DNA of 64,000 bases, taken from contig JAZNUB010000041.1 in the NCBI GenBank assembly GCA_045592105.1, positions 20,517-84,516 on the forward strand, given 5' to 3'. The notes beneath the pieces were generated by a model, which was given only the letters and a program-made list of their open reading frames with translations, ran no database searches and had not been told where the DNA came from. The stretch's first letter is position 1; every line of letters begins with the position of its first letter. A program made the position numbers and the translations under genes. The DNA comes from Eubacteriales bacterium. Lineage in GTDB: Bacteria > Bacillota > Clostridia > Oscillospirales > CAG-382. Below, piece after piece: positions 4,595 to 29,705 of the stretch.

Positions 4595-4614
4595 TATAAA
4601 TCAGGAGGTATGTT

Positions 4615-4920
4615 ATGGCGTTGACTATAAACAAAAACAATTTTGAAAGCGAAGTATTGAAAAGCGAAAAGCCTGTTCTTTTGGATTTTTGGGCAAGCTG
4701 GTGCGGCCCCTGCCGTATGATAGCCCCAACGCTGGAGGAAATAGCAGAGCAGCATCCCGAATACAAGGTTGGTAAGATAAACGTGGATGAGGAGGCGGAG
4801 CTTACCGAGCAGTTTAAAATAGTAAGCATCCCCGCGCTTTTCGTTGTGAAAAACGGCAAGGTGGTAAACCAAGCCGTGGGCGTTATGCCTAAAGAAAAGA
4901 TACTTGATATGCTGAAATGA
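4615..4920 (+). CDS. trxA: thioredoxin
   Basis: 101 aa with [10 protein letters not shown] active site. AGGAGG RBS upstream. Confidence 0.95.
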
Positions 4921-7380: not shown

Positions 7381-7539
7381 ATATGAAATCCTGTGTAAAA
7401 AATTTTTTGAAAAAATTCAATTTTTTTATAGACGTTTTTGCTTTTTTCGACATTTATATAGTGGAGACATTAGATAAATCTCAAAAATATTATTTTATAG
7501 GTCATGTTAAGCCAAAAACTCAAGATAAGGGAGCGTAAA

Positions 7540-8070: not shown

Positions 8071-8074
8071 AATT

Positions 8075-8967: not shown

Positions 8968-9876
8968 CTACAACTGATTTCTATAGTTGTATTTATTTAG
9001 CACTTGACGTTTGCGCTTGATACTGACTTCGGTATAAATTTCCGTTGTTGCTACGCTGCTATGCCCTAGAAGCTCCTGAACAGAACGAAGGTCTGCGCCG
9101 TTTGATAACAGATTGGTTGCTAATGTGTGACGAAGGCAATGTGGCGTTGCCTTTTCAGTTATTTTCGCGCTTTGTTTTGCGCTTTTGAATATGTATTCTA
9201 TGCCGTGTATACTTATTTGATTGCCATAGCGATTTACAAATACCTTATCGGTATAAAGTTCGGTTTTGTTACGGTATTTAAGCCATTGAGTAAGATTGTG
9301 CCAGGTTTCCGGGCAAGAAATATATATCAGCCTTTGCTTTCTACCCTTGCCGTGTATAAGTATTGTGTGTTCAGATGAAATAATGTCTGACAACGAAATG
9401 TTGGATGCTTCTTCTATACGAATTCCCGTGCATATAAGAATGTCAAGTAAGGCAAGGTTGCGTGCGTTTTTCCATTTTGCAGCTTCGGTATTTGATTGTT
9501 CGAAGCGCTTGTAGACAGCCTCCAAAAGAGAGCACACTTCCTTTTTGGTAAGTGTTTTGGGAAGGCGTTTAGCTTTTTTGAATTTGAATACATTAGCGTA
9601 ATAGTTTTTGTCTGTGTATCCTTTTTGATTAAGATACGCAAAAAACATTTTCAGTACAATGAGTTTTCGGTTGATTGTGCTGTCAGATAACTGTCGTGTA
9701 TCCATAAGATATGAAACATATTTAACAACCGTTTCTTCGTTGATGTCATCATCAAGAATATAGTTATTAAAATCTTTCAAATCTGAAAAGTAGGCAGTTA
9801 TTGTTTTAACCGATAGGTTCTTAGTGGAGCGTATGTGCTCCAAAAATTCGTTAGTAATGCTCTGATATTTGTTCAT
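8968..9876 (-). CDS. tyrosine recombinase, XerC/XerD-like
   Basis: 302 aa. Catalytic-signature motifs TGIRIEE (R), HCLRHTLATNLL (HxxR), LLGHSSVATTEIYTEV (H...Y). Confidence 0.9.
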   Translation of the reverse strand: MNKYQSITNEFLEHIRSTKNLSVKTITAYFSDLKDFNNYILDDDINEETVVKYVSYLMDTRQLSDSTINRKLIVLKMFFAYLNQKGYTDKNYYANVFKFKKAKRLPKTLTKKEVCSLLEAVYKRFEQSNTEAAKWKNARNLALLDILICTGIRIEEASNISLSDIISSEHTILIHGKGRKQRLIYISCPETWHNLTQWLKYRNKTELYTDKVFVNRYGNQISIHGIEYIFKSAKQSAKITEKATPHCLRHTLATNLLSNGADLRSVQELLGHSSVATTEIYTEVSIKRKRQVLNKYNYRNQL

Positions 9877-9951: not shown

Positions 9952-10006
9952 TTACAATAACTACTTATTATTGTGAGATTACGAACACAGGATATTATTT
10001 TATTAT
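9952..10006 (+). repeat. R1: 55-bp element, perfect inverted partner of R2
   Basis: ttacaataactacttattattgtgagattacgaacacaggatattattttattat. Contains the palindrome ACAATAA-N7-TTATTGT. Ends 31 bp before the ATG at 10038. Confidence 0.95.
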
Positions 10007-10037
10007 CAATGATAAGTCTAGAAAATGAGGTGTCATT

Positions 10038-11498
10038 ATGGATGGCGTAGAAAAATCTAACATTTATATGGAGGATGGTCAGGATCATGAGTGCTGTAGT
10101 CTTACAGATATGGTATTCAAAGATCTCGACTATAGCCAATATAAGAACCCTATTTCTTTCTTTAGAAGCGATTTTAGTCGCAGCAGATTCTACAGTTGTA
10201 CATTCAATCGAAATTCGTTTGGGCGGGCAGATTTTATTGATGTCTTAATTAAAAACACAGAATTTGAATCTGTTGATTTTGGTTCTTGCTTGCTTAAAAA
10301 CGTATTGCTCGAAAAAGTGATTTTTTCTCGTAACAGTTATCGCGGTATAGCAATCCAATATACATGTTTTAGGAAGTGTGTTTTCAGAAATGAGGATTTC
10401 ATCACCAATATGTATCATTGCGAATTTCACGAGTGTACATTCATAAACTGTACATTCAAAAAATCATCTCTTGATTCTAATACATTTTCAAATTGTGAGT
10501 TTATCAAAGTAGATATGTCAGAGTGTATTGCAGAGAATTTAAAATTCGGTAATTGCTCGTTACGAGATGTATTCCTTGGAGCTAATCTTTGGACAACCTA
10601 TTTATATCGAGACACAGATATATACAGCTTTGGCTTTAAGTATAGAGGTAAACAAGTTGATATTTGGAATGGAGATCCTGCATCATTTGTAGGCGGATTG
10701 TTACAGAAGGAACTATTCTTTGAGTACTTTAATGTTTTAATAATCGGTGATCTCATTCCCCAATATGGCTTTGCATGTGAATTTGAAAGATTATTCCCCC
10801 AAATAATGACACTATCTTCACAGCAAAGGAAGAGAACGATTATAAAAATACTGGATATGCTCCTATTTTATCAAAACTATCAAAAGCTTCCAATTGGCGA
10901 ATATCTTTCTGTGTATACTTACTTGCTTCAAATGAATTGGGGAGATACTCCATTTGATGAAGTACTTATATACAATGCTGAATTGTTCAAAATTCAAAAA
11001 TCCATGGAGCAGTTAGACTTTGATTTGTCCTACATTAGAAGCTTTCCAACCAACGCTATCTGTATATCTAAGTATCATATCAACTGTGATGATGCTGCAA
11101 TTGCGCGGGAGTATTTAGAAAATGTCTTTAATTCAGCAAATCATCTGTTATGTGGTAATGAGTATAGTCAGCCATTAATTAAAGTAATTAATGAGGAAAA
11201 AGGGTCTGTAATTCTAACGATAGCTTCTGCTGCAGTTTTAGCACTGCTTGTATCATATGTTGCCAAAAAGGTTATGCACAATTTACATAGTATTCAAATA
11301 GAACACGGAATCAAAAAGCAATTATTAAGAAGTTTAACGGAGGGAGGAACAGATATATCCGATATCAAAAAAAGCTGTACGCTTGCCCAAAAACTAGATT
11401 TGCTGCCCAATGAAAAAGATTCTGAGCACATTAATCGTCTTTCATCCGAACTCACTAAGGGTGAGATACTTGATATCATTCTAAATTTCCTATTTTAG
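10038..11498 (+). CDS. pentapeptide-repeat protein with C-terminal TM helix
   Basis: Residues ~30-190 are runs of pentapeptide repeats (FSRSRFYSCTFNRNSFGRADFIDVLIKNTEFESVDFGSCLL...). One hydrophobic helix VILTIASAAVLALLVSYVAKKV sits near residue 400. GAGGTG RBS. Confidence 0.8.
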   Translation: MDGVEKSNIYMEDGQDHECCSLTDMVFKDLDYSQYKNPISFFRSDFSRSRFYSCTFNRNSFGRADFIDVLIKNTEFESVDFGSCLLKNVLLEKVIFSRNSYRGIAIQYTCFRKCVFRNEDFITNMYHCEFHECTFINCTFKKSSLDSNTFSNCEFIKVDMSECIAENLKFGNCSLRDVFLGANLWTTYLYRDTDIYSFGFKYRGKQVDIWNGDPASFVGGLLQKELFFEYFNVLIIGDLIPQYGFACEFERLFPQIMTLSSQQRKRTIIKILDMLLFYQNYQKLPIGEYLSVYTYLLQMNWGDTPFDEVLIYNAELFKIQKSMEQLDFDLSYIRSFPTNAICISKYHINCDDAAIAREYLENVFNSANHLLCGNEYSQPLIKVINEEKGSVILTIASAAVLALLVSYVAKKVMHNLHSIQIEHGIKKQLLRSLTEGGTDISDIKKSCTLAQKLDLLPNEKDSEHINRLSSELTKGEILDIILNFLF

Positions 11499-12660
11499 TG
11501 ATTCCTTCAATCAAGCATTGTTGATCAAGAAGTAGGTTTACGCGGAACGAATACAAGCCTTCCTCCCGATACAGATAACGTGAATGTGGTGTTGTTAGAA
11601 CTCCCGTCTTTTTTAAAATGTCCAACGCAAACTGGGTGTCATCTGTTTTTTCCGTATTTGGAACAGATAACAACGCAAAGTACCCACAGTTGGTAGAAGA
11701 AATCACTGTGCGTGTATCTCGTAATATTGCTTTTATCATCTTGTATCGATTCTGCGCAAGTTTTGCATTTTCAGCTATTAAACTTGTTAGAGTTTGAGAC
11801 GATACGAGTGAATATATCTGTGGAACCAGATTAACTTGTTGCTGTGCCATTGAACCTACCATAAATACAGAAAGGCGGAGTATCCTTTTCATTATTTTAG
11901 GAGAAGCAAATACAAGTGCAAATTTAGCCCCATTTAAAAATACTCGTTTTGATATTGACTCGATAAACACGTAATGCTCAGCGGAGCTTATTGCTTGAAA
12001 AACAGGAGAATTGAACATATAATATGATGGATTGAAAATATTCCATGGCATGCCGCCATACACATAATCCATAACAAGGCATACATTATGTTTGTTGCAC
12101 AGTGTAACAATACTCATTATTGTTTCAGTACTGAGTTCAATGCCACAACCAAATAGCGGGTTGGTAATTATAAGTGTATCAATGGAATTGCTAACGAAAT
12201 AGTTTTCTATAATATCGTTATGTAGCGAAAAATTATCGTTTGCACACAATTTATATTCAACGACATTGAAATCCAGTTCATCAAGCAGATTAAGCGTGGA
12301 AAAATACACAGGAGTGACAACCAATGCACTGTGTCTTCCTGCTTCTTTCAACGATGATAGTGTAAGCATTATGCCAGATGTACCATTTGACCCGATTGTA
12401 AAACTGTCCTTATGGAGCGAAATTGAATACTGATTTGAAAAAAATTTTTGAATAGTATCGCGATAACCTTCTTCGTCTGTCCAAAAATAGTACTTCTGAA
12501 CATCTGAAAGCTGCACAGAGTTAAGTGCTAAGCTTGGCATGTGAATGCTGTTATAATCAGCATCCCAATCCGATAGAAAAATTGGACTTGTGCCCGTTCT
12601 CTGGTAATAGGCAATTTTTGCTTGCATTATTGCTTTGATACTAGTATTATATCGTCTCAT
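11476..12660 (-). CDS. PLP-dependent aminotransferase-fold protein (class I/II-like)
   Basis: ITNPLFGCG (compare NPxNPTG), VMDYVYGG (compare DEVY) and SISKRVFLNGAKFA (SxSK PLP-lysine motif). ATGA overlap with the upstream GNAT gene. 23-nt convergent overlap with the pentapeptide gene. Confidence 0.7.
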   Translation of the reverse strand: MRRYNTSIKAIMQAKIAYYQRTGTSPIFLSDWDADYNSIHMPSLALNSVQLSDVQKYYFWTDEEGYRDTIQKFFSNQYSISLHKDSFTIGSNGTSGIMLTLSSLKEAGRHSALVVTPVYFSTLNLLDELDFNVVEYKLCANDNFSLHNDIIENYFVSNSIDTLIITNPLFGCGIELSTETIMSIVTLCNKHNVCLVMDYVYGGMPWNIFNPSYYMFNSPVFQAISSAEHYVFIESISKRVFLNGAKFALVFASPKIMKRILRLSVFMVGSMAQQQVNLVPQIYSLVSSQTLTSLIAENAKLAQNRYKMIKAILRDTRTVISSTNCGYFALLSVPNTEKTDDTQFALDILKKTGVLTTPHSRYLYREEGLYSFRVNLLLDQQCLIEGITKIGNLE

Positions 12661-13319
12661 TCTTTTTCCTGCCTTGAGATTAAAATAAGGGTCTTGTTTT
12701 CAGATCCTAGTGCAATACCTTCATAACCACATCGGAGCATTAGGTTTAACTGATTTATTTCTCCTCTTGGGACGACAAACATTTTTTGATCGTTATCTTT
12801 CTCCTGCAGAGGTAAATTTGCGCACATAATAAACCGTTTTACCCCATAGATTTCATCATGCAAAACAATTCGTTGCTTTATTTTAAAAGCCAATGCCAGA
12901 CTAGGCGTATTTTGAGGTGATACCGTGCTCAATAAGATAGTAAATTGAGGATCGATATGTAACATCAAATATCGAATAAGCCGTTCAGCTATTCCCAATC
13001 TTCTGAATTCGGGCACAATACAAATGTGCTCCATTTGCACAACAGAAAGAAGTTTTTTCTCATCATAATGGAGCAAGTGTCCAAGGTTATTCTTACCTCT
13101 TTTAGGAAAAACAAATGATACGAATCCGATGAGAGCGTCTTCATAAAAAGCCCCCATCGTGTGGCCGTATCCAGAAATGATTTTAATGATGTAGTATAAA
13201 CTAGGGGGGATAAATAAGTCATTGCTTAATGTTGAAGTAACGATTTGCAAACAACGAGAAATCTGATGTATGTCATCCAAATTCAATAATCTTATTGTAA
13301 GATGTTTCTCAAAATTCAT
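12657..13319 (-). CDS. GNAT-family N-acetyltransferase
   Basis: Motif A ICIVPEFRRLGIAERLIRYL. Start moved to MNFEK because the track start at 13373 lies inside repeat R2. Confidence 0.75.
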   Translation of the reverse strand: MNFEKHLTIRLLNLDDIHQISRCLQIVTSTLSNDLFIPPSLYYIIKIISGYGHTMGAFYEDALIGFVSFVFPKRGKNNLGHLLHYDEKKLLSVVQMEHICIVPEFRRLGIAERLIRYLMLHIDPQFTILLSTVSPQNTPSLALAFKIKQRIVLHDEIYGVKRFIMCANLPLQEKDNDQKMFVVPRGEINQLNLMLRCGYEGIALGSENKTLILISRQEKE

Positions 13320-13339
13320 CAATCCACCACGCATACTGT

Positions 13340-13394
13340 ATAATAAAATAATATCCTGTGTTCGTAATCTCACAATAATAAGTAGTTATTGTAA
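13340..13394 (-). repeat. R2: 55-bp element, perfect inverted copy of R1
   Basis: Its reverse complement equals 9952-10006 base for base. Lies immediately upstream of the minus-strand GNAT/aminotransferase operon. Confidence 0.95.
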
Positions 13395-13449
13395 GGTAAG
13401 TACGTACGTCAACAGAACACGTAAAAAAGAAAAATAACCTAATTATATC

Positions 13450-13467
13450 ACAATAATCCGGTTATTG
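13450..13467. promoter_or_regulatory. degenerate fifth copy of the repeat core overlapping a minus-strand promoter-like sequence
   Basis: acaataatccggttattg (CAATAA-N5-TTATTG). The minus strand reads caataaccggattattgtgatataat, an extended -10 TGnTATAAT aligned to the attattgtgagatta segment of R1-R4. Confidence 0.5.
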
Positions 13468-13553
13468 AAATTGAATTATTAAGTTTGTGCGCATGAACGG
13501 CAAGCTGTATCATAACTGATTTTAATATGATTTAAGAATAAATATAAAATACG

Positions 13554-13612
13554 ATAATCCTACAATAACTGCTAATTATTGTGAGATTATGATAGCTAGG
13601 GACTGTAATTTG
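13554..13612 (+). repeat. R3: 59-bp element, perfect inverted partner of R4
   Basis: ataatcctacaataactgctaattattgtgagattatgatagctagggactgtaatttg. Shares the core tacaataact..attattgtgagatta with R1/R2. Confidence 0.95.
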
Positions 13613-13647
13613 TTTATATCAAATTAAAACAAAAGTACAATGTTGAT

Positions 13648-14718
13648 TCACTTAGGAATGGCATATACTACTGACTCCTCATAATAACAAGAATGATGCC
13701 GAAAATATAAATCATATCCCAAACCTAATTTATGTATGTATTGAGGAATTTCTACATAATCTGATATTTTATGATATGAGCATACTGCTAATATTGGTTT
13801 ACAAGATTTAATAGTTTTTATTGCGCCTTCAAGTGCCTGCAATTCTGCCCCCTCGATATCTAAAGCGATTATTGCAACATCGCTGAGGCAGCAATCATCT
13901 AATAGTAATGTTTGAACAATACTATTTCCGTTACCTTCTGCGCACACTTTGGCTCCTAGTTCATTTGAATTATCAAAGGAAATGTAACCATTGCTGTTAT
14001 AAAGTGCTTTTTCAATTATTTTTATTTTAGACAAATTACAAAACTTTTGACGCAAATATTCTGTCCAAATTGAATTCGGCTCGAAAAGTATGGCATTCTT
14101 TATATCTGTTTGCGTTAGCGCCCTATCAATGTGACTTCCATTATAGGCGCCTCCAAGAATTATTGTTCCTTTTTCTGGAACGTTTGGCACTATATCATTT
14201 CCCCAGTATGGATGCCCAGAAAAAAGCATAGGATCATATACGCGTCCTATTATTCGTGATTTCCAATATTCCTTATATAGTTTTTGAGAAGTTGCATCTG
14301 CGAAAAGTTTCGAAGTGTCAATAATTTCTAATTCATGATCCAATGCATAAAAATATGCTTCAATCGATGTACATGGTAGTATTGGGAAATAGTAGCATTG
14401 CAAATGATCATATAGCTCACCTAAATAATTATAAAACTCCTGATCTTCTGCGGCAATCAATATTATAGCGTTCTCTGAGCGTATGTTTTTTATTTCGTGT
14501 AACGGAAATACAGGAATTCCGCGCACACCGTTTGGATACTCTTCTGGGGAAAAATCGTATATTTTGTATGGCAACGGCAATCGCGGATTGGTTTCAGAAC
14601 AAAATGGTTCTAATAGAAAAGACTCTGCATGCTTCGCACCCAAACATAGCAATGATTTAGTTCCGTAAAAAACTGGAGTTAGCATTTTTGTAATAACGGA
14701 AATACTATCAAGACTCAT
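13648..14718 (-). CDS. FkbM-family SAM-dependent methyltransferase with N-terminal extension
   Basis: GGAYNGSHI and IALDIEGAELQALEGA motifs of FkbM methyltransferases. Start moved to MSLDSISV (AGGAGG, then 7 nt, then ATG). Confidence 0.7.
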   Translation of the reverse strand: MSLDSISVITKMLTPVFYGTKSLLCLGAKHAESFLLEPFCSETNPRLPLPYKIYDFSPEEYPNGVRGIPVFPLHEIKNIRSENAIILIAAEDQEFYNYLGELYDHLQCYYFPILPCTSIEAYFYALDHELEIIDTSKLFADATSQKLYKEYWKSRIIGRVYDPMLFSGHPYWGNDIVPNVPEKGTIILGGAYNGSHIDRALTQTDIKNAILFEPNSIWTEYLRQKFCNLSKIKIIEKALYNSNGYISFDNSNELGAKVCAEGNGNSIVQTLLLDDCCLSDVAIIALDIEGAELQALEGAIKTIKSCKPILAVCSYHKISDYVEIPQYIHKLGLGYDLYFRHHSCYYEESVVYAIPK

Positions 14719-14751
14719 ATTTAAACCTCCTGTGAAAGGATTGATACCACA

Positions 14752-17700
14752 ATGAAAGACCAATGGCAATTTACATTAATATCTGAAATCAAATCGATCA
14801 TTCGGGGAAAAGGCTGTTCTGAAGGACTATGTTTTTTCCTTGGTGCGGGAGCAGATATTACTAGTGGAGGAATGCTGTTTTCAGATTTAAAAAGACGATG
14901 TCTATACCAACAAGGCATTTCTCTTCCTATAAATGCTTCACCTTTGATGATTGATTGCACCTTTGACCAATACTTTCGTGCGTTGACAGAAGATGAACGT
15001 TGTATTGTTTTAGAAAATCTTCTTCGCGAAACAAGAAGATTTAATCCGTCGGATGGATATCGGTTACTTGTACTCATGGCCAGGGAAAAGTTTGTATCCT
15101 CTGTAATTACGACTAATTTCGATAATTTAATGGAACAGACAGAGTTAGATATGGGAATTAATGCATTTCAGATATATTCCCCTGGAATTTCTATTCCGGC
15201 GTCACACATAATAAATCATCGTTCATCGAGGGCAATTTATCTAAAAATGCACGGAGATGTTGATGGTAGGTGCGTTACGCACCTCACAGTAGAAGAAATT
15301 AACAATCGTAATTATCAAGATGAATATAAAATATTGTTGCAGCATTTGCTTACACATAGTACGGTCATTGTTGCAGGCTATAGTGGCTATGACTCAAAGA
15401 TTGCAGATATATTTCAGCAAAATCTTGATCGATTACATACCGTATATTGGTGCAATCCGTCTTTACCAAACCCTGATGCTCCGCTGGTGAAGGTCCTAAA
15501 CAGTGCACAAAAGTTACGATATATTCAAACCGGATTCGATGCTTTCGTAGAAACTATTGCAAGTGAACTGTTTCGAGAGCGCATGATATTTCATGCAGAC
15601 TCAATTTTTATATGGTCGCTAATTAAAACAAAAATCGAAAAGCTACAAGATATCTATCGCAAGAGCGCAGACTTGCCAACTAGTGAAATCTGCATCCCAA
15701 GACTTGCCGCATTGTCCCAATTCGATCAATTTTTAGCCCAAACGGAAAAAAATCTTTTCATTTTATCCGGTCCTCAAGGTTCGGGAAAAACAGTTTTAAT
15801 TTCTCAGTTATTAATGCGCAATGAAGCGGATAACCTATATGTTGTTCCTATATCCGCTCCAGGTGCATTAGTTCCTGATCCCTCTGCTTATTTAATTGAA
15901 AATCTCGGCTATATTACAACCAACCCAATGTCTGTGCTCTATCAATTTACGGAATGGTTGCATGAAATCAAGAAGGATGTTGTAATTGTATTTGACTCCA
16001 TTGGCAGTGGACAATCTAGTAGGGAACGTATCGCAGATTATCTGAGTACAATAATAGAATTAGCATATATACTTCGACATGTTCCAAATGTAAAATTCAT
16101 AATTTCATTAAAAGACGATATATTTAACAACGTGGCAAAGGATTTAGATCAAAACTATTTGCGTACTGTTCTTTGGAGTAATAGTCATTCTCTTGGTCTA
16201 TCAAGTTTGTTCATGGACGGCTTCACGGACGAGGAACTATCTAGTGCTCTTCAAATATTCCGTTATCGTTTTACAGCACATGAGGTTAATGAGATATCGG
16301 ATGATATTCGTAGTTTATTTCGAATCCCATTTTTCTTCGGATTAGCGTTACAGCATAATTTCAACAGCGGAACATCGATATTTGACGTAGCGGGATTAAT
16401 GCCTACAATTGATCGTATCTTTGCGATATATGAATTGTCGTTCGCGGAAAGGAAGTTTCTCCAAAATCTTGCAACAAAAATGTTAAATACAAACAATTCG
16501 GTTTTGCGCATTGATGAAATAGAATTTGAAACTTTGCACGGTTTGAAACAGATTCTGAATGTGACTTCCGATTGTGTTTCTTTTCGTCATCCGCTATTTT
16601 GGCAGTACTTTCTCGTGCGTTCATATAAGACAAAACAAATTTTAAATAATGGTACGTTTGTTGACCTTAATTGGATAGCGTCTACTTTTTTGTGCGAAAC
16701 GACTGAACGAGCAATTCAAGAAAGTTTTGTATTATTTCTTTCGGATGAAGAAGAAATCGATTGCGTGTGTAATTTTTTTGTTAGATTGTTACAGGAAAAT
16801 CAGTGCAATTCTTCTCGATTATTGCATGTGAACAAATTAATTGGACAGGTAGTTGATAACTGGGCTATTAACCGTACAAATGATCTTTTGCAGTGGGTAA
16901 AATATGTAGATTCCAAAAGTGAAAGTTTTATATTAATTTCGAAAAGACTTGCGTATTGCTCGACTCATATGGATGATACGAATGCATATTTGTTACTGGA
17001 TATGTTACGAATTCGTTGTACAAATCCAATTGCGTTAGAGTGTTGCGTGTTGATCAATGATCGTTTTTCAGAGGGATTAAAACGTGTACCAGAGGGAGAG
17101 GAATGCGAATATTTTGGCAAGTATGGCTATATTCTTAAGTCCAACACCGCACTTGGAACATTAGTACAATTTGTATGGTTAATGAGTAAAATCGGAATCG
17201 ATAATCTCGAACTCAATCATTACACTCGATTGGCCAAGTGCGTAAAAAAACAGATCGAATCTTTGGACGTTTCTAATGTCACCAAGGAAGATGCAGAGCT
17301 ACTTAAAGAAGGTTTTGTACAAAATGTATACATGATCTTCTTTAATGCTAATAGTAATTTGGAAGAAAAATTTTACTGCTTCGCAGCAAAGTCTAAAACA
17401 TCCCCAATAATCCGTACTTTACTCAACGGCAAAGATGGTATAACATTACAGCATTTGTACGAAATTCGTTCATGTGTTGATCATTTCGATGAAACAATAG
17501 AGTTCTTTGTCTGTAATTTATTGTTTACGCTCTCTATGTTGCAAAATCCCAATCGTGCGCTTAGTGAATTGGATGCCCTGTATAATAGTTTCGGAGATAA
17601 TGTAAATATCCTTGAACTAGACTTCTATCTCAGTGCGTTGTTCATGTCTTGTTATATATCAGATCCCAGAGAACGGATGCAATATTTAACTCGATTCGAA

Positions 17701-18375
17701 CAAACCATCATCGATTACGAAACATTAATTTTTTATACACCAGCAGATGGACGTATATCATCTTGTCGGCGTTTTTCTGATCAATTTGATCTTGAGTTTG
17801 AAGATGGGTTTAATGCTCTAACAAACTATTCATATACAGCTCCTAGTATAAATTATATAAATCGTGACAATGAGAAACAGGGCGTTGATGAATATTTAAA
17901 AGCATACTGGTACCTTCTGGATACATTGGAAACAACGGGCAATTATGAAAAAATTCTACGACTTTTGCAAGCAGTCAGTCAAATGATTGTGAATTGGCCA
18001 AAAGAAGGATTTGATGCCTTGGAAAAATTTGTTTCGATCAAACATCCACTTATCCACCGCGGCGTAGTTAGAGTGTTGTCTCAGAACTATTTGCGTTATC
18101 CTTCGATTACAAAATCATTTCTTAACAAGAACGGTGATAATTTCACGTATCATGAACTTTTGGAGATTCAAGGCAATGCATCAGCAAATATTGAGTATCG
18201 AACGCTTGAGCAACTACAATGGGCGCGTATGTTATACTTTTTGCGCACATGGATTGACGCAGATATCATCGAAAAGGTTTTGACGATTTTTATTACAACT
18301 GATACTCTAGAATCAGCGCTTATGAAAATTATTGCTTTAACGAAAGGTTCAAATAGTGACGAATTAATTGGTTGA
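14752..18375 (+). CDS. SIR2-like domain / P-loop NTPase / helical-repeat protein (SIR2-STAND, Avs-like architecture)
   Basis: N-terminal motifs FFLGAGADITSGG, VITTNFDNLMEQ, YLKMHGDV and VIVAGYSGYD match the SIR2_2-type pattern. Walker A GPQGSGKT (nt 15769-15792) and Walker B-like DVVIVFDS. About 750 aa of mostly helical C-terminal sequence follow. Confidence 0.75.
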   Translation: MKDQWQFTLISEIKSIIRGKGCSEGLCFFLGAGADITSGGMLFSDLKRRCLYQQGISLPINASPLMIDCTFDQYFRALTEDERCIVLENLLRETRRFNPSDGYRLLVLMAREKFVSSVITTNFDNLMEQTELDMGINAFQIYSPGISIPASHIINHRSSRAIYLKMHGDVDGRCVTHLTVEEINNRNYQDEYKILLQHLLTHSTVIVAGYSGYDSKIADIFQQNLDRLHTVYWCNPSLPNPDAPLVKVLNSAQKLRYIQTGFDAFVETIASELFRERMIFHADSIFIWSLIKTKIEKLQDIYRKSADLPTSEICIPRLAALSQFDQFLAQTEKNLFILSGPQGSGKTVLISQLLMRNEADNLYVVPISAPGALVPDPSAYLIENLGYITTNPMSVLYQFTEWLHEIKKDVVIVFDSIGSGQSSRERIADYLSTIIELAYILRHVPNVKFIISLKDDIFNNVAKDLDQNYLRTVLWSNSHSLGLSSLFMDGFTDEELSSALQIFRYRFTAHEVNEISDDIRSLFRIPFFFGLALQHNFNSGTSIFDVAGLMPTIDRIFAIYELSFAERKFLQNLATKMLNTNNSVLRIDEIEFETLHGLKQILNVTSDCVSFRHPLFWQYFLVRSYKTKQILNNGTFVDLNWIASTFLCETTERAIQESFVLFLSDEEEIDCVCNFFVRLLQENQCNSSRLLHVNKLIGQVVDNWAINRTNDLLQWVKYVDSKSESFILISKRLAYCSTHMDDTNAYLLLDMLRIRCTNPIALECCVLINDRFSEGLKRVPEGEECEYFGKYGYILKSNTALGTLVQFVWLMSKIGIDNLELNHYTRLAKCVKKQIESLDVSNVTKEDAELLKEGFVQNVYMIFFNANSNLEEKFYCFAAKSKTSPIIRTLLNGKDGITLQHLYEIRSCVDHFDETIEFFVCNLLFTLSMLQNPNRALSELDALYNSFGDNVNILELDFYLSALFMSCYISDPRERMQYLTRFEQTIIDYETLIFYTPADGRISSCRRFSDQFDLEFEDGFNALTNYSYTAPSINYINRDNEKQGVDEYLKAYWYLLDTLETTGNYEKILRLLQAVSQMIVNWPKEGFDALEKFVSIKHPLIHRGVVRVLSQNYLRYPSITKSFLNKNGDNFTYHELLEIQGNASANIEYRTLEQLQWARMLYFLRTWIDADIIEKVLTIFITTDTLESALMKIIALTKGSNSDELIG

Positions 18376-19684
18376 ACAGTTCAAGTTCATGTTCTTCCAT
18401 AAAAAGACTGGGCGATAAAAGAAAAGCATTTTCAAAAATACCCCCAACAGATATAATTAACCCATAGTTTGTATTTCTTATAGACATAGGTTGAGTTAAT
18501 GCTAATTCGGCAACTCTACGAGTTAATACTGGATCGGGTCGCTTTGAAATAGGATCTACCAATTCTAGACCAGCGGCCATTCCGCAGCAATCAACGCGTC
18601 CAATGATGGAATAATCCGCTTTTAGCTGTGTTATTATTTCGTTAAATACATGGGATTTTCTTGCCACCTGATTCTGCAGGCTTTCTGAAGCCGTAAGTTC
18701 CATCGCTGTGATTCCTAGAGACATTGCAATTGGGTTCCCTGAAAAGGTAGAGTGAGAAGAACCACATGGCCATTGATCGGGGGATATTATTTCTTCGCGT
18801 GCCCATACACCAGACAGAGGCCATAATCCATTGGTTATCGATTTACCAAATGTAAACATATCTGGAGTTACGTTATAGTTTTCAAATGCCCACATTTTCC
18901 CTGTTCGAAAAAAACCCATTTGAATTTCATCGAAAACAAGATAAATACGGTGTTTATTTAGTAACGCTTTTAACTCACCAAAGTATTCCTTTGGGGGCAT
19001 AACATATCCACAGCGTCCGAGGAGCGGTTCTGCAAAAAAGGCTCTATATTCGCTAATCTCATTTTGGGGTTGAAATACGCCATAGTACTCCGATTCAAAC
19101 ACACGTTCGATCTGCTTGATGCAAAATAAATTGCAAGAAGTGTTTATTTTTTCATATGGACATCGGATACAACATGGAAATGGAATACGATATGTATTGA
19201 TAATACTGCCAAACTGATTATGGTATCGGTTACTTGAACTTATACTAGATGCAGCCATCGTTCTGCCATGGTATGCACCTTCAAACGTAAACACATTTTT
19301 AGTTCCAGTCGATGATGAAATTATTTTTAATGCATCATCGACTGCTTGTGCTCCCCCAACTGAGAAGTGTACACGTCCTTTTACTCCATGTTTCTGTTCC
19401 ATATAGGAACATATCTTTTCGGCAAGTATGACTTGAGAGTCGCACATATACTCTCCAGATAAACTTGGAAGTTGTTTCATCTGTCGCACTAAAGCTTCTT
19501 CAAATAAGGGATTTCGATATCCAAAGTTCGCTGCACTATTATACATCTGCATATCAAGATATTTCGTTCCGCTATTATCGAACAAAAAACAACCTTCGCC
19601 CTTACTGAAGTACTTCTTAGGTTGGTGTCGAGCGCTAGTATCGCCCTGAGAACAATACTTTTGCTCCGTTTCTTGAATATTCAT
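18329..19684 (-). CDS. class III (omega-type) PLP aminotransferase
   Basis: YLVFDEIQMGFFRTGKMWAFE and FTFGKSITNG (PLP lysine) motifs. Strong RBS AAAGAGGGG. 47-nt convergent overlap with the SIR2-STAND gene. Confidence 0.8.
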   Translation of the reverse strand: MNIQETEQKYCSQGDTSARHQPKKYFSKGEGCFLFDNSGTKYLDMQMYNSAANFGYRNPLFEEALVRQMKQLPSLSGEYMCDSQVILAEKICSYMEQKHGVKGRVHFSVGGAQAVDDALKIISSSTGTKNVFTFEGAYHGRTMAASSISSSNRYHNQFGSIINTYRIPFPCCIRCPYEKINTSCNLFCIKQIERVFESEYYGVFQPQNEISEYRAFFAEPLLGRCGYVMPPKEYFGELKALLNKHRIYLVFDEIQMGFFRTGKMWAFENYNVTPDMFTFGKSITNGLWPLSGVWAREEIISPDQWPCGSSHSTFSGNPIAMSLGITAMELTASESLQNQVARKSHVFNEIITQLKADYSIIGRVDCCGMAAGLELVDPISKRPDPVLTRRVAELALTQPMSIRNTNYGLIISVGGIFENAFLLSPSLFMEEHELELFNQLIRHYLNLSLKQ

Positions 19685-19729
19685 GATATTTACCCCTCTT
19701 TAACTTAATGTAGTCCAATAAAAAGATTG

Positions 19730-19788
19730 CAAATTACAGTCCCTAGCTATCATAATCTCACAATAATTAGCAGTTATTGTAGGATTAT
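19730..19788 (-). repeat. R4: 59-bp element, perfect inverted copy of R3
   Basis: Its reverse complement equals 13554-13612. Ends 45 bp upstream of the class III aminotransferase start codon. Confidence 0.95.
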
Positions 19789-19870: not shown

Positions 19871-19927
19871 TCCCCTTAGAGCAATCTTGAAACATTTTTG
19901 TTGTTTCAAGTGTCTACTCTAAGGGGA
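19871..19927. other. long nested hairpin at a module boundary
   Basis: Outer stem tccccttagag (19871-19881) pairs with ctctaagggga (19917-19927). Inner stem cttgaaaca (19886-19894) pairs with tgtttcaag (19902-19910). No flanking T run. Confidence 0.7.
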
Positions 19928-19969: not shown

Positions 19970-19998
19970 TTGACACGCTACTTATCATAGTGTATAAT
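19970..19998 (+). promoter_or_regulatory. consensus sigma-70/sigA-type promoter
   Basis: TTGACA (19970-19975), 17-nt spacer, TATAAT (19993-19998), about 35 nt upstream of the ATG at 20032. Confidence 0.7.
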
Positions 19999-20031: not shown

Positions 20032-20886
20032 ATGAATGAGCTAATTAAATACATTCGGGCATCGGCAAATATGAATCAGGAGCAGTTTGCTTCTGCTCTC
20101 GGTACTACGGTGCAATCTATAAACCGTTGGGAGAACGGAAAGACACTTCCCAACAATATGGCGCAAAAGCAGATATATCAGTTTTGCCTGGGCAATAATA
20201 TTAACATAAGCGATCATATCATTATGTCAAAGGAATATCCCCATTCCGATGATAAGCTGATTTTGTATCATGGATCTAAAAAGGGGTTGAAGGGAGATAT
20301 TGCCCCTGTCAGCCGTGAGGAATGTGACTTCGGGCAGGGCTTCTATATGGGTACTACAACTCTGCAGCCTTTAACTCTTGTCTGTGCCGAGTCAAAACCC
20401 AAGTTTTATACGGTGGAGCTTGATTTGACCGGTTTGAAGGTTCTCCGTGTCGGCATCGATATGGATTGGGCTATGCTGATTGCCTACTTTCGTAAGGAAA
20501 TGGAAGAAGCAAAAGGCACGGCGATCTACGAGAAATATGCGCATTTCGCAGATGGCTACGACATTATCGTAGGTTATATCGCAAATGACCGTATGTATAC
20601 CGAATTGTCAAGATTCTTTAACCGTACACTTACCGATGTGGCACTTATCAATTGTCTGTCTGCGTTGGATCTTGGTATGCAGTATGTGGCTATTACGGAA
20701 AAAGCCTGTAAGCAAATCAAGGTTGTTAAAGAGGAACAGTTGCATCTCCTTGAGCTTTCTGCATTGATTGATTTGAGTGTCGCACGCCGTAAGGAAGGTA
20801 TCGCATTGGCGGAGGATATCGAAGTCAAGTACAGACGTGAAGGAAAATTCTTTGATGAAATTTTGAGAGGTGGGTTAGATGAGTAA
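20032..20886 (+). CDS. XRE-type HTH fused to a DUF3990-like domain
   Basis: N-terminal MNQEQFASALGTTVQSINRWENGKTLP is an HTH_3 pattern. The C-terminal LILYHGSKKGL...DFGQGFYMGT pattern matches DUF3990 as I remember it. Confidence 0.65.
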   Translation: MNELIKYIRASANMNQEQFASALGTTVQSINRWENGKTLPNNMAQKQIYQFCLGNNINISDHIIMSKEYPHSDDKLILYHGSKKGLKGDIAPVSREECDFGQGFYMGTTTLQPLTLVCAESKPKFYTVELDLTGLKVLRVGIDMDWAMLIAYFRKEMEEAKGTAIYEKYAHFADGYDIIVGYIANDRMYTELSRFFNRTLTDVALINCLSALDLGMQYVAITEKACKQIKVVKEEQLHLLELSALIDLSVARRKEGIALAEDIEVKYRREGKFFDEILRGGLDE

Positions 20887-21298
20887 ATCACTGCAGCTTG
20901 CTCTTTGTGATACTCAGGGACAGCTTTTTGTGTTGTCTGCGAAAAACGGTTACGATAGTCAGGCGTTTGCCAAAGCGTTTATGACCACCGAAGTTGCCGC
21001 CGATATGGATAAGGACTTTCACCATGTTCAATGGGCAGGCAAGGAATACATTCTGTCACGCATTGAGGACGAACATTCCGAGCTACTGTCGAAAGGCGAG
21101 CCCTTCGACACAGAAACGCTGTATTGGATGGGATACATTTACCGCTATTGGAATTTCTATACAGGAGAAAGCAGTGAGAAAATATACAAACAAGCGCCTG
21201 CTAAAACAATGCAGATTGTCTATCTGATGTATCACACTATGAGTCCCGAACTTGCTATCGAAAGACTGAAAGAGTCTTATAAAGAAAAACACAGTTAA
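20879..21298 (+). CDS. DUF3791-like protein
   Basis: 139 aa with an 8-nt overlap with the preceding gene. DUF3990/DUF3791 genes are frequent neighbours in Firmicutes. The family call is from memory of that pairing, not an HMM. Confidence 0.5.
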   Translation: MSKSLQLALCDTQGQLFVLSAKNGYDSQAFAKAFMTTEVAADMDKDFHHVQWAGKEYILSRIEDEHSELLSKGEPFDTETLYWMGYIYRYWNFYTGESSEKIYKQAPAKTMQIVYLMYHTMSPELAIERLKESYKEKHS

Positions 21299-21737: not shown

Positions 21738-21798
21738 TCCCTAAAAACTTGTCGATTATCCCAAAGCCTTTGACACAGCGCACGGTATGTGTTAAAAT
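21738..21798 (+). promoter_or_regulatory. conserved 29-nt box (copy 1) plus promoter of the two-component operon
   Basis: tccctaaaaacttgtcgattatcccaaag is followed by TTGACA (21770-21775), 17 nt, then TAAAAT (21793-21798). The box holds two TCCC(T)AAA half-sites about 21 nt apart, the LytTR-type geometry. Confidence 0.6.
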
Positions 21799-21821
21799 TA
21801 CTTGTTAAAGGAGGGATAAAA

Positions 21822-22550
21822 GTGTTTCACGTTGGAATGTGCGATGACAATAGGGTGTTTTTGGCTTCGATAGGGCCGATAATAGAAAGGGAGTTTAAGA
21901 AAACAGTCTCTCCGAAGCTTGATATGGCTTTTACTGCTTTTGCTTCGGCAGAGGGCGTTTTACAGCACGTCAAAACAAATAAGCTTGACCTTCTATTTCT
22001 TGACATAGATATGCCCCGCATCAGCGGCTTTGAGCTTGCAAAGACACTTGGCAGGGAAAGCAAAAGCACACTAGTGGTCTTTATGTCCGCCTATGATAGC
22101 TTTATGTACGAATCCTTTGATTTTTGTCCCTTTGCCTATATCAAAAAAAGCTCCTTCGAGAAGGATTTGCAAAAGGTTGTAAGGCGAGTTAACGAGGAAA
22201 TACTGTCACCCCAAAAATATATAAGCATTATCTCCGATAACAACGAGATAGAGCTTGACGTAGGGAAGATACTATGCGTTGAAAGCGACAAAAACTATTA
22301 TATCGTCCATTTGGTTGGCGGCGGCAAATACGTTTGCCGCGGTACTCTGTCGGGTGTAGAGGAAAAGCTTTCGGACTTTGATTTTTACAAGGTACACTCT
22401 GCCTTTCTCGTTAATTTGGAGCACGCTGGCAGGATAAGCGAAGACAGATTTTTGCATTTAGGAGCTATGTGCGTACCCGTTGCGCAAAAGCGCGTGAGCG
22501 ACTTTAAAAAGGCACTTTCGGAATTTATGAGAAGAAAGGCGGGAATATAA
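21822..22550 (+). CDS. LytTR-family response regulator
   Basis: Start moved to the GTG after AGGAGG. Receiver domain (LLFLDIDMPRISGFELA) plus a C-terminal LytTR-type DNA-binding region (CVESDKNYYIVHLVGG...HSAFLVNLEH). Confidence 0.85.
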   Translation: MFHVGMCDDNRVFLASIGPIIEREFKKTVSPKLDMAFTAFASAEGVLQHVKTNKLDLLFLDIDMPRISGFELAKTLGRESKSTLVVFMSAYDSFMYESFDFCPFAYIKKSSFEKDLQKVVRRVNEEILSPQKYISIISDNNEIELDVGKILCVESDKNYYIVHLVGGGKYVCRGTLSGVEEKLSDFDFYKVHSAFLVNLEHAGRISEDRFLHLGAMCVPVAQKRVSDFKKALSEFMRRKAGI

Positions 22551-23855
22551 ATGCACAGACTTATCGAAGTTGCGGCTACCGTTACCGACGCTGTTTTTAT
22601 GGCGTGGTTTGTGCCAAGGTTTTGCGGTGTTTCCGTAAAAGATAAGCGCCGTACGCTATGTATACCCTTGGTATACTGTATCTTGCAGCTTTTAATGGAT
22701 ATCTATTTAAAAAGCTTTGATATTTTGCCTTTACTTGTGCCCATAGCTTTGTGGTTTGTATACGCCCTCTCCTTGATACCGAAACGTTACCTGCGTTCGC
22801 TTTTTTGTACGTCTTGCTTTATGATACCCCTGATGCTTACAAACACCTTGCTGTTTGCCTTCTTTTCGGTGTACTTAGACGACGTAAATGTAATTATGCC
22901 GGGTGCAAACGTGGGCATACGAACTATGTTTTTGATAATTGCAAAAATAGTGTTGTTTGTTTTCTATCGTTTGATGCTGTTCTTGTTCGGCAAAGATAAG
23001 GAGCTTGGCAGGTCAGGAGGAATATTATCCCTGGTTTGGTCTCTTGCTACTGCGGCAGGAATAGCCGTATTAATGAAAACGGCTATAAAAATAAACTACA
23101 CGGACATTAGCACCGAGGTTTTTATCGTAGTGTTTTTGCTTATGGGCATAAACGTGGCGTTCTATTATCTGCTAAGCCAAAACCAAAAGCTGGAAAAAAG
23201 CAAGTACGAGCTACAGCTTATGAAGGACAGAATAAGCTTTGAGGAAAAACGCAGTGAAGACGCCGCTATAATCTGGGAAAACATTAAAAAGGTAAGGCAT
23301 GACCTTAAAAACCATTTTACCTATTTAAGGCTACAGCTTGACGCGGCTAATTACGAGGAATGTAAACAGTATTTAGGGGAAATACAAGCTGAGGTCGACA
23401 GTATGGGCAGCCTTATAAGGTCGGGCAACTCCGCTATAGATTACCTTATAAACACAAAGCTTTCGTTGGTGAAGGGGGCGCAGATTTTTATCACGGGCGA
23501 CGTGGAAAGCTTTAGTGACGTTACAGATCTTGATATGGTTTGTATCTTAGGTAATATTTTAGATAACGCAGTAGAAGCTTTGGCTAAGGTCGAAGGGGAT
23601 AAGCGGATAGAGCTTTATTTTTCAAAGGTCAACGGGAACCGTATAATAGTATGTAAAAACACCGTGAGTGCTTCCGTGTTGGATTCTGATAAGCGGCTTA
23701 TACCTTCAAAGCAAGACACGGAGTTCCACGGCTTGGGACATAAAATTATAGAAACCACCACGGGAAAATACGGCGGCTACGTGGACTATTTTGAAGAGGA
23801 CGGAATGTTTGGCATACAAGTATCCATCCCCTCACCCACGGATAAAGACAATTAA
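22551..23855 (+). CDS. AgrC-like membrane sensor histidine kinase (GHKL)
   Basis: Six or so N-terminal TM helices. H-box VRHDLKNHF, N-box LGNILDNAVEA, G-box HGLGHKII. Start codon directly follows the regulator's stop codon. Confidence 0.85.
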   Translation: MHRLIEVAATVTDAVFMAWFVPRFCGVSVKDKRRTLCIPLVYCILQLLMDIYLKSFDILPLLVPIALWFVYALSLIPKRYLRSLFCTSCFMIPLMLTNTLLFAFFSVYLDDVNVIMPGANVGIRTMFLIIAKIVLFVFYRLMLFLFGKDKELGRSGGILSLVWSLATAAGIAVLMKTAIKINYTDISTEVFIVVFLLMGINVAFYYLLSQNQKLEKSKYELQLMKDRISFEEKRSEDAAIIWENIKKVRHDLKNHFTYLRLQLDAANYEECKQYLGEIQAEVDSMGSLIRSGNSAIDYLINTKLSLVKGAQIFITGDVESFSDVTDLDMVCILGNILDNAVEALAKVEGDKRIELYFSKVNGNRIIVCKNTVSASVLDSDKRLIPSKQDTEFHGLGHKIIETTTGKYGGYVDYFEEDGMFGIQVSIPSPTDKDN

Positions 23856-23861
23856 TATAAA

Positions 23862-23898
23862 AGCAGTGCGTGATTACAAACTCACGCACTGCTTTTGT
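23862..23898 (+). terminator. rho-independent terminator
   Basis: agcagtgcgtga (23862-23873) pairs with tcacgcactgct (23883-23894), followed by a T run. Confidence 0.8.
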
Positions 23899-23951
23899 TG
23901 TCGGGGTCCCCACGAAGTCGTTAGACTTTGTGGGGTGATTTTAGTCAATTG

Positions 23952-23988
23952 TCCCTAAAAATGTGTCGATTATCCCAAAGGGTTGAAA
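23952..23988 (+). promoter_or_regulatory. conserved 29-nt box (copy 2) plus -35-like TTGAAA
   Basis: tccctaaaaatgtgtcgattatcccaaag matches 21738-21766 at 27 of 29 positions. It has the same 2-3 nt spacing to a -35-like hexamer, upstream of the lipoprotein/ABC genes. Confidence 0.6.
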
Positions 23989-24054
23989 GTGTATTTTTCT
24001 TATTATACCATATATGTGTACCGAAAAATAGTCTTTGAAAGGTAGCTGAAGTAT

Positions 24055-24903: not shown

Positions 24904-24924
24904 GAAGAAAGGAAAGGCTGTAAA

Positions 24925-25776: not shown

Positions 25777-25790
25777 ACGAGGTAGTATGT

Positions 25791-27498: not shown

Positions 27499-27499
27499 A

Positions 27500-29701: not shown

Positions 29702-29705
29702 AGCT

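Follow-up and report, generated by a model that had tools for sequence, protein, structure and literature searches.

A SIR2-STAND gene with opposite-strand enzymes in a candidate invertible defence cassette of a Eubacteriales bacterium

The window analysed here is a 64,000-nt stretch of contig JAZNUB010000041.1 (Eubacteriales bacterium, assembly GCA_045592105.1, positions 20,517 to 84,516 of the forward strand). At 13554-19788 it carries cassette 2, a unit of three intact genes enclosed by a 59-nt inverted repeat with 100% complementary arms: a large gene for a SIR2-STAND protein on one strand, and genes for an FkbM-family methyltransferase and a class III aminotransferase on the other. We lean, with modest confidence, towards reading cassette 2 as one unit of a recombinase-flipped, two-stranded defence module, whose enzymes are functionally coupled to the effector. 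The parts of the cassette are as follows (positions are those of the window):

13554-13612: left arm of the perfect 59-nt inverted repeat; core site 13561-13582, ACAATAA-CTGCTAA-TTATTGT
13648-14721, minus strand: FkbM-family S-adenosylmethionine methyltransferase, 357 aa from the ATG at 14721, reading outward towards the left site
14752-18375, plus strand: SIR2-STAND protein, 1207 aa (translation of the open reading frame (ORF), Pfam, fold models)
18329-19684, minus strand: class III (omega) pyridoxal phosphate (PLP) aminotransferase, 451 aa (Pfam, NCBIfam)
19730-19788: right arm of the perfect 59-nt inverted repeat; core site 19760-19781

A preliminary description of this DNA, made from the sequence alone, had proposed a repeat-bounded unit, and the perfect inverted repeat was found at its borders (13554-13612 / 19730-19788). 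The 47-nt overlap that it gave for the convergent 3' ends of the SIR2-STAND and aminotransferase genes was exact (18329-18375); the divergent gap between the FkbM and SIR2-STAND genes, given as 33 bp, measured 30 nt between the start codons (14722-14751). The longest ORF of the FkbM gene covers 13648-14769 (minus strand, TTG start), and an AGGAGG ribosome-binding site (RBS) precedes the ATG at 14721, almost certainly the true start. All the motifs quoted for the SIR2-STAND protein were found in its translation (FFLGAGADITSGG, ITTNFDNLMEQ, YLKMHGDV, VAGYSGYD, GPQGSGKT and DVVIVFDS), and Pfam, NCBIfam and PADLOC agreed with the domain calls (SIR2_2, STAND-type P-loop, FkbM, Aminotran_3).

The effector, its partner enzymes and their linkage

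Neighbourhoods were read for five homologues from the protein search and for 20 loci from a scan of the GTDB representative genomes (L numbers below). Enzymes adjoined the SIR2-STAND gene, on the opposite strand, in about 25 of 26 distinct loci (Firmicutes, Alpha- and Betaproteobacteria, Acidobacteriota), the sole exception being a decayed copy (L033). The partners were an aminotransferase, a NodU-type carbamoyltransferase or both, to which an FkbM or TylF methyltransferase, a GNAT protein, a 2-oxoglutarate (2OG) oxygenase, a flavin adenine dinucleotide (FAD) oxidase or a small SIR2 protein was sometimes added. Sorted by the identity of the SIR2-STAND protein to that of the window, they were distributed as follows:

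75% and 57% (L001-L003): FkbM and aminotransferase
36-37% (P0019 and P0027 clades, Roseburia L031): FkbM and a HemL/GntE-like class III aminotransferase, with or without GNAT
33% (L012): aminotransferase and a TylF O-methyltransferase, without FkbM
26-35% (L016, L022, L023, L025, L030, L032): aminotransferase alone
22-32% (Proteobacteria, Acidobacteria): convergent NodU/CmcH-type carbamoyltransferase with an aminotransferase, a 2OG-Fe oxygenase or a small SIR2 protein

The 22-32% group includes Bradyrhizobium, Rhodobium, Allosphingosinicella, Pseudoduganella, a betaproteobacterium, Pyrinomonadaceae and an Acidobacteriota metagenome-assembled genome; extra enzymes in this group were an FAD (DAO) oxidoreductase (L024) and an ATP-grasp-methyltransferase fusion (L020). 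The small second SIR2_2 protein (282-300 aa) was encoded on the enzyme strand of L021 (15369-16271) and L028 (14195-15043). It resembles the SIR2 of ThsA/LmuA and adjoins the carbamoyltransferase, replacing the aminotransferase or oxygenase.

A check of the neighbours of homologues had been suggested in the preliminary description, and enzymes of the same kinds were nearly always adjacent. The candidate multi-gene unit is borne out by this conserved linkage. The option that the enzymes are unrelated cargo, also raised there, is very unlikely, because homologues of the large protein nearly always adjoin like enzymes. The two enzymes fared differently as components. The class III aminotransferase was still present where the large protein had only about 25% identity, also in other phyla, and is a core component in the Firmicutes, whereas FkbM is a clade-specific accessory: it was conserved beside the SIR2-STAND gene only in clades at least 36% identical, and elsewhere TylF stood instead, or GNAT and other enzymes were added. 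The core partner is thus the aminotransferase in the Firmicutes and the carbamoyltransferase in the Proteobacteria and Acidobacteria. Non-orthologous swaps stayed within a function class (FkbM to TylF; GABA-AT-like to HemL/GntE-like aminotransferase). The aminotransferase was 45-54% identical where the SIR2-STAND protein was only 25-35% identical, the partner being more conserved than the effector.

In the reverse search from the aminotransferase, the top ~100 matches (at least 47% identity) lay mostly on contigs of 4.8-6.3 kb. The homologues P0135 (~49% identity, 192 collection blocks) and P0112 were convergent to a SIR2 protein of 1114-1154 aa, with a recombinase alongside. A 45% identical homologue in Omnitrophota stood in an unrelated context, among DegT, FemAB-like and EamA genes and not beside a SIR2-STAND gene. 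Neither a SIR2-STAND family member with unrelated, non-enzymatic cargo nor an aminotransferase subfamily commonly lacking SIR2-STAND was seen in these neighbourhoods.

The large effector was encoded on one strand and all the enzymes on the other in every cassette examined, namely both cassettes of the window (cassette 1 is described below), both cassettes of L004, and those of L012, L017, L018, L020, L021, L024 and L032. Effector and enzyme units were usually convergent, with overlapping or closely spaced 3' ends. This strand separation within an invertible unit is what most sets the system apart.

The architecture claimed for the large protein (SIR2, STAND and a helical C-terminus) was supported by sequence and fold comparisons. 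Its domains are SIR2 (residues ~25-275), a P-loop NOD (~320-480), then a winged helix, and a HEAT/ARM-like alpha-solenoid (~650-1200). Pfam returned SIR2_2 (PF13289) above the cut-off (E 6e-13) and a P-loop/nSTAND3-type NTPase just under it (E 7.5e-6), with nSTAND3, AAA_22 and AAA_16 matches at residues 320-466. Among 18-42 homologues, the SIR2 residues G31-A-G33, D35, S38, N122 and H167 were invariant, N122/H167 being the catalytic Asn/His; across the family, so were G340, G345 and K346 (Walker A) and D415 (Walker B) of the NTPase, and a C-terminal acidic/aromatic motif (F1016-E-D-G-F1020, plus Y1026 and P1031). The FEDGF motif was considered as a pocket for the product of the enzymes and set aside, as it is invariant across clades with different enzyme sets.

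AlphaFold2 models had a mean predicted local distance difference test score of 86.7 for the N-terminal half and 87.6 for residues 481-1207, the latter folding as a winged helix and an all-alpha, HEAT/ARM-like solenoid. With Foldseek, the top match of the N-terminal half was EfAvs5 (9jap_A, E 9.6e-14, 13% identity), in which both SIR2 and NOD were aligned; the next best were SPARSA, DSR2, ThsA, the AVAST5 filament 9nc9 and KomC, all of them defence NADases. The C-terminal solenoid matched nothing in the PDB at E <= 1e-3, and only generic importin-, PP2A- and AP2-like solenoids were returned. By sequence, the SIR2 domain was nearest to pAgo/Aga_SIR2 in PADLOC (E 2e-19 to 3e-17) and to SPARSA 8in8/8jkz in a PDB sequence search with the family profile (E 8e-13), which otherwise found generic P-loops and did not retrieve EfAvs5 at E <= 1. 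The PADLOC scan gave 15 matches at E <= 0.01, with no Avs model among them.

The protein belongs to a small family with sharp limits: 60 representatives were counted at E <= 1e-30 among 1.84 billion, and 61 homologues came from a search of 5.8 billion proteins, many of them on contigs of ~6.1-6.25 kb, which is the cassette size. No relatives turned up in viral contigs or in PLSDB plasmids. On the fold models, the SIR2-STAND protein appears structurally closest to Avs5, in a separate small family of ~60 representatives. By analogy it may work in an Avs5-like manner, yet we would not file it within the described Avs5 clades; a defence role and NADase activity are predicted on the same basis.

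The FkbM protein matched Pfam PF05050 (Methyltransf_21, E 6.8e-10, 39.8 bits against a cut-off of 22.7), TIGR01444 (46.8 against a cut-off of 37.7) and the PDB entry 2py6 (FkbM); its N-terminal ~190 aa had no match in domain or PDB searches. The aminotransferase matched Aminotran_3 (PF00202, E 1.3e-67, 228.8 bits against a cut-off of 30.5) and carries the PROSITE-type PLP-lysine motif of class III aminotransferases (LVFDEIQMGFFRTG...FGKSITNG). The PLP lysine K281 was invariant in the subfamily, as were D252 and Q255. Every NCBIfam equivalog fell below its cut-off for this protein, hence no substrate could be assigned from that search. None of the partner enzymes has a PADLOC model, and neither does their combination with the SIR2-STAND protein.

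An invariant cysteine cluster (C172, C175 and C188, in an insertion at residues 168-188) was also observed in the aminotransferase subfamily, together with a nearly invariant C11. The cluster suggests a putative metal site of a kind not known from other class III aminotransferases.

Recombination sites and inversion

The preliminary description treated the repeats as boundaries. They appear instead to be recombination sites: on the sequence evidence, cassette 2 is best described as an invertible segment with a dif-like site at each end, the two in inverse orientation, and with an Xer-like recombinase encoded nearby to act on them; near-identical relatives occur in both orientations. Each repeat arm contains a recombinase-type core, in which two 7-nt arms (ACAATAA/TTATTGT) enclose an asymmetric spacer of 7 nt. 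Both sites of a cassette share one spacer, and the two cassettes of the window have different ones (CTACTTA in cassette 1, CTGCTAA in cassette 2). The pattern ACAATAA-N(4-9)-TTATTG gave 9 strand-matches at 5 places in the 64-kb window, against 0.07 in shuffles. The presumed invertase of both cassettes is encoded to their left:

8968-9876, minus strand: Xer-like tyrosine recombinase, 302 aa (Pfam Phage_integrase and SAM-like domain)

It matched the XerC and XerD models at E 1e-69 and 1e-65 (233 and 219 bits), below their cut-offs.

A fifth, orphan dif-like site with a shorter spacer (ACAATAATCCGGTTATTG, 13450-13467) was observed in the 159-nt spacer between the cassettes.

Two other origins of the repeats were considered and rejected. 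Transposon ends did not fit, there being no transposase inside, an asymmetric-spacer core in each arm and a clean inversion in relatives. An integron did not fit either: the IntI models gave 112 bits against a cut-off of 265, each cassette has two inverted sites, and genes lie on both strands.

Inverted dif-like pairs with reverse-complementary spacers (ATAAy-N5-rTTAT, often GATAAC...TTATC) flanked the cassette in at least 13 related loci across phyla, in Firmicutes, Rhodobium, Bradyrhizobium, Pseudoduganella, the betaproteobacterium and Pyrinomonadaceae. A homologous recombinase was adjacent in L002, L004-9, L012, L017, L022-24, L028-32, L035 and L038; none was adjacent in L016, L019 and L027.

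Inversion is real in relatives. An identical SIR2-STAND protein (P0019) is encoded in L004/L006 and in L005/L007/L008, with the cassette in opposite orientations. When L004 was compared with L005, L007 and L008 (>99.5% DNA identity), the 6.7-kb cassette was collinear and both flanks were reverse-complemented. An assembly artefact is unlikely here, because the contig names suggest k = 87 and the inverted repeat around the P0019 cassette is only 25 nt. In L002 and L003, one outside flank (TTGGACAACTATG) is joined to the FkbM end of the cassette in one locus and to the aminotransferase end in the other, and L030 and L032 have opposite cassette orientations relative to the recombinase. Many cassette-sized contigs terminate exactly at the sites, which, on our reading of assembler behaviour, fits mixed orientations within samples.

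In L024 (4395-4681), a site pair of the same type (ATAACTGAGTATTAT / ATAATACTCAGTTAT, 272 bp start to start) was observed in an intergenic position near the recombinase. It looks like a promoter-sized mini-inverton of the same recombinase.

Proposed mechanism and alternatives

Inside the cassettes, genes start so close to the sites or to each other that little or no room is left for promoters: the aminotransferase of L003 starts 28 nt and the GNAT gene of L004 34 nt from the site, and the SIR2 gene of L032 starts 14 nt from the repeat. Outside, a consensus promoter that reads inward was found 7-23 nt from exactly one site in L002, L004, L031 and L023, and in the first three of these loci it is an extended -10 (TGnTATAAT). 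Weaker one-sided candidates were found in L009 and L012, and the recombinase gene is directed straight into the cassette in L017, L022, L023, L029 and L035. For the promoter argument, only the comparative, single-sided extended -10 elements were used, as suggestive evidence. Since gene starts abut the sites and outside promoters are one-sided, inversion probably chooses which strand, effector or enzymes, is driven by the flank promoter. The corresponding region of the window is:

13395-13553: spacer between the cassettes, with the orphan site and two promoter-like elements (consensus matches only)

The first of these matches is an extended -10 (TGTGATATAAT, 13452 to 13442, minus strand), which overlaps the orphan site and reads into cassette 1. 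The second (TTAATA-17-TAAAAT, 13522-13550, plus strand) reads into cassette 2, on the strand of the SIR2-STAND gene.

The extended -10 TGATATAAT was also observed just outside the sites of L002 and L004, and in the window; it is preceded by TG in the window and L002, and by TT in L004.

In the mechanism that we propose, the alpha-solenoid would sense a trigger, the STAND NTPase would oligomerise and the SIR2 domain would hydrolyse NAD+, resulting in abortive infection. The opposite-strand enzymes would be obligate small-molecule partners of the effector. They would tailor an amine- or sugar-type metabolite, most plausibly derived from NAD or ADP-ribose, with a functional link to the effector, whether as its ligand, a brake on it or a sink for its product. 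The partner families are all amine- or sugar-tailoring, and the enzymes of the sister cassettes are a class I/II aminotransferase, PALP, ATP-grasp and an ornithine/arginine decarboxylase. The neighbouring Xer-like recombinase would invert the unit between the dif-like sites, swapping the strand that faces the flanking promoter and so placing each strand in turn behind a strong promoter or behind a weak one or none. Effector and enzymes would be expressed in a phase-variable and probably reciprocal way, with antisense read-through into the other strand.

Several observations weigh against this proposal. In the AT-rich DNA of 8.9-20.2 kb, the promoter and terminator scan gave 45 promoter-like matches against 46.6 in shuffles, and 7 terminators against 6.3. 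Flanks were ambiguous, or weak promoter candidates stood on both sides, in several loci. L016 has the sites with no recombinase within ~10 kb upstream or 3 kb downstream, and some Bradyrhizobium loci have no detectable site pair or recombinase. The strain of the window is represented by one contig, and both orientations were seen in relatives only. Strictly reciprocal expression, if such is the case, would bar enzymes and effector from acting together, unless the proteins persist or basal promoters exist. The invariance of the C-terminal motif across chemically different enzyme sets argues against a pocket that reads the product. A simple ligand model is weakened by these last points taken together, namely the differing enzyme sets, the invariant sensor motif and the apparent reciprocity.

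A broader version of the proposal is tentative, and we hold it to be rather doubtful. It states that such cassettes form a new class of immune module, spread from Firmicutes to Proteobacteria and Acidobacteria, in which a flip drives either the NADase sensor or the enzymes plus RNA antisense to the sensor gene, in which the enzyme product serves as ligand, brake or sink, and to which the sister cassettes conform.

The enzymes might instead tailor the products of the NADase, which we regard as unlikely. They would derivatise ADP-ribose (transamination of the C1'' aldehyde; O-methylation, O-carbamoylation or acetylation of the ribose) or nicotinamide, and thereby block NAD+ recycling by phages or form a toxic or secondary-signal derivative. 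All partner families are indeed classic tailoring enzymes of sugars or amines (class III aminotransferase, NodU/TobZ-type carbamoyltransferase, TylF, FkbM, GNAT, 2OG, FAD), interchangeable enzyme sets fit 'any derivatisation' better than one specific ligand, and in two loci a second small SIR2 protein is encoded beside the carbamoyltransferase on the enzyme strand. NAD+ rebuilding by phages reportedly starts from ADP-ribose and nicotinamide. That phages rebuild NAD+, a further point in favour, is reported in a preprint (10.1101/2024.02.11.579819). Tailoring of this kind would need co-expression, however, which the opposite-strand, convergent and invertible layout seemingly avoids, and in the sister cassettes similar enzymes accompany effectors other than SIR2 proteins, which make no ADP-ribose.

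The same low credence is given to a switch between two independent and exclusive programmes, an abortive-infection sensor on one strand and a metabolic, chemical-defence or envelope programme on the other, with enzymes that do not work with the SIR2-STAND protein. Strict strand segregation in every cassette type examined, the single-sided flank promoters of several loci and the occurrence of both orientations in nature would be expected of such a switch; its design would be like that of the phage Mu G segment, and the closest outgroup of the aminotransferase lies among envelope-type genes (DegT, FemAB-like, EamA). The aminotransferase subfamily is nevertheless dedicated to the SIR2-STAND family and has co-diverged with it across phyla, and a lone cytoplasmic aminotransferase is improbable as a stand-alone programme. 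Read-through from the recombinase gene, together with a promoter on the other flank, would moreover express both strands in some loci.

It is quite improbable that the cassette lies outside immunity altogether, with the SIR2-STAND protein as a metabolite-sensing regulator (MalT/AfsR-type) or enzyme in a small biosynthetic pathway and the cassette making a phase-variable secondary metabolite. The tailoring repertoire does resemble natural-product chemistry, and the C-terminal solenoid is unusually conserved for a sensor of phage proteins. Yet the protein has no DNA-binding output domain; its output domain is a SIR2 with the catalytic Asn/His, and its closest relatives in sequence and structure are all defence NADases. 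Core biosynthetic genes are absent, aminotransferase-only cassettes have a single enzyme, and defence genes and mobile elements abound in the neighbourhoods.

Least probable of all is hitch-hiking in mobile cassettes akin to dif modules, with cargo that shares no function and inversion as a by-product of mobility: inverted Xer-type sites around gene modules are the hallmark of the Acinetobacter dif modules (PMC13141974, PMC6449649), two such cassettes stand in tandem in the window and the island is mobile, but the combination and its strand layout recur across three phyla down to 22-26% identity of the SIR2-STAND protein, enzyme swaps remain inside a function class, the recombinase is dedicated and adjacent rather than the host XerCD, and the searches of PLSDB plasmids and viral contigs gave no relatives.

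Island setting and comparison with known systems

Cassette 2 lies within a low-GC island of ~28 kb (~7123-35300), which interrupts uvrB near its 5' end. The first ~92 codons of the native gene are orphaned at 6853-7122; the right end of the island brings a diverged substitute for them, with an RBS of its own (GTG at 35318), and so restores a full-length UvrB ORF (35318-37264). Two tyrosine integrases are encoded at this right end (32554-33729 and 34075-35058). A complete Kiwa system (7504-8962; KwaA, 188 aa, PADLOC E 7e-22; KwaB, 295 aa, E 3e-85) stands immediately upstream of the recombinase, and KwaB was also found beside the related cassette of L030 (4465-5376). Type III CRISPR, RloB/AAA_21 and genes of integrative and conjugative elements were found near relatives. 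The second cassette of the window is composed as follows:

9952-13394: sister cassette 1, with a perfect 55-nt inverted repeat and the layout of cassette 2
10038-11498, plus strand: pentapeptide-repeat protein, 486 aa, with a hydrophobic C-terminal stretch
11476-12660, minus strand: Aminotran_1_2 protein, converging on the pentapeptide gene with a 23-nt overlap
12657-13319, minus strand: GNAT protein

A related pentapeptide cassette of L032 (16331-20131) has an ornithine/diaminopimelate/arginine decarboxylase as its enzyme. L004 carries a second invertible cassette on the opposite side of the recombinase (274-4749), laid out as cassette 2, with ATP-grasp and PALP (PLP) enzymes on one strand and an 827-aa protein on the other; this protein had no Pfam or PADLOC match.

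To the right of cassette 2, at 20032-21298, the gene for an HTH-DUF3990 protein (284 aa) overlaps a gene of 139 aa; the HTH-DUF3990 protein matched three candidate systems of PADLOC (PDC-M13, M42 and M10). Between cassette 2 and these genes stand a long hairpin (19873-19927) and a promoter of perfect consensus, TTGACA-17-TATAAT (19970-19998). The island cargo at 21789-32203 comprises genes for a LytTR regulator and a GHKL kinase, then genes without Pfam match, an ABC-2-like membrane protein and an ABC ATPase, as well as DUF5028, MBOAT and DHHW genes.

If the proposed coupling is true, an enzyme-tied sister family of Avs5-type proteins would lead to unexplored small-molecule chemistry in NLR-like immunity, which could be a new signal, a brake, or an irreversible breakdown of NAD that counters its reconstitution by phages. 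Flipping of a whole gene set by a dedicated Xer-like recombinase would be a phase-variation design unreported for defence in the literature searched, and inversion would explain how a dangerous NADase is carried at low cost. Should the sister cassettes obey the same rule, a general 'effector versus enzymes' inversion architecture would emerge. The system is compact (5-7 kb and one recombinase). In metagenomes such cassettes are often assembled on their own, as contigs of 4.8-6.3 kb, and defence-finding pipelines that rely on context would miss them.

Among known systems, Avs5 is the nearest in design. It is described as a SIR2-effector STAND protein (PMC11897194); it senses a phage protein and hydrolyses NAD+ on activation, and no partner genes are described for it (PMC12931631). 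The protein of the window shares with Avs5 an N-terminal SIR2 with the catalytic Asn/His and a GAGxS NAD-binding loop, a central STAND P-loop, C-terminal helical repeats and a size of ~1200 aa. It differs in that opposite-strand enzymes accompany its family, the C-terminal motif is highly conserved and the genes lie in a segment that a recombinase can invert; the SIR2-STAND gene was never seen alone among the neighbourhoods read. With SPARSA, DSR2, ThsA and KomC, only the SIR2 domain is in common, and the window protein has no Argonaute/APAZ, SLOG or DSR2-type sensor.

Thoeris and Kongming offer a precedent for enzymes that make a nucleotide-derived small molecule controlling a SIR2 NADase: the ThsB signal activates ThsA, and the Kongming enzymes make dITP, which triggers NAD+ depletion (10.1101/2024.12.20.629578, PMC12967843, PMC11204291). 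The enzymes considered here are of other kinds (PLP aminotransferase, FkbM/TylF, carbamoyltransferase), without TIR, deaminase or nucleotide kinase logic, and are encoded on opposite strands of an invertible segment. Hailong is a conceptual parallel for a partner enzyme whose product restrains an effector, since the product of the HalB enzyme is said to restrain the effector HalA. The cassettes of the window have no nucleotidyltransferase, unlike Hailong. The pentapeptide protein of cassette 1 matched HalA (NF051894) at E 1.7e-12, far below the cut-off and confined to the repeats.

The Acinetobacter dif modules are discrete gene modules between inversely oriented XerC/XerD pdif sites, which may stand in tandem (PMC13141974, PMC6449649). 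The cassettes are likewise bounded by inversely oriented, dif-like Xer-type sites, two of them being in tandem in the window. The spacer of the L002 sites (TGTATA) is that of E. coli dif. In contrast to the cassettes, dif modules use the host XerC/XerD, are found on Rep_3 plasmids and carry mostly resistance or toxin-antitoxin genes; the cassettes have a dedicated adjacent recombinase, lie in chromosomal islands of many phyla and have a spacer proper to each site pair, and inversion, not shuffling, was observed for those with SIR2-STAND genes.

Programmed inversion is likewise a known device. In the G segment of phage Mu, inverted by Gin, a fixed outside promoter reads whichever end faces it. 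In hsdS invertons with tyrosine invertases and in the RecV switches of C. difficile, a recombinase acts on inverted repeats and both orientations are found in populations (PMC7672463, PMC9881135, PMC7446863). In the known switches, a promoter is turned round or alternative alleles of one protein are exchanged (tail fibres, HsdS), whereas here 5-7 kb of complete and functionally different genes, effector against enzymes, are flipped. In the literature searched on Avs5, DSR, Thoeris, Kongming, dif modules and invertons, no SIR2-STAND protein was tied to an aminotransferase or carbamoyltransferase, and no invertible whole-gene defence cassette of such design was found. Avs5-like effectors and programmed inversion are thus both known in kind and their combination is apparently undescribed, with a real chance that it represents a new class of immune architecture.

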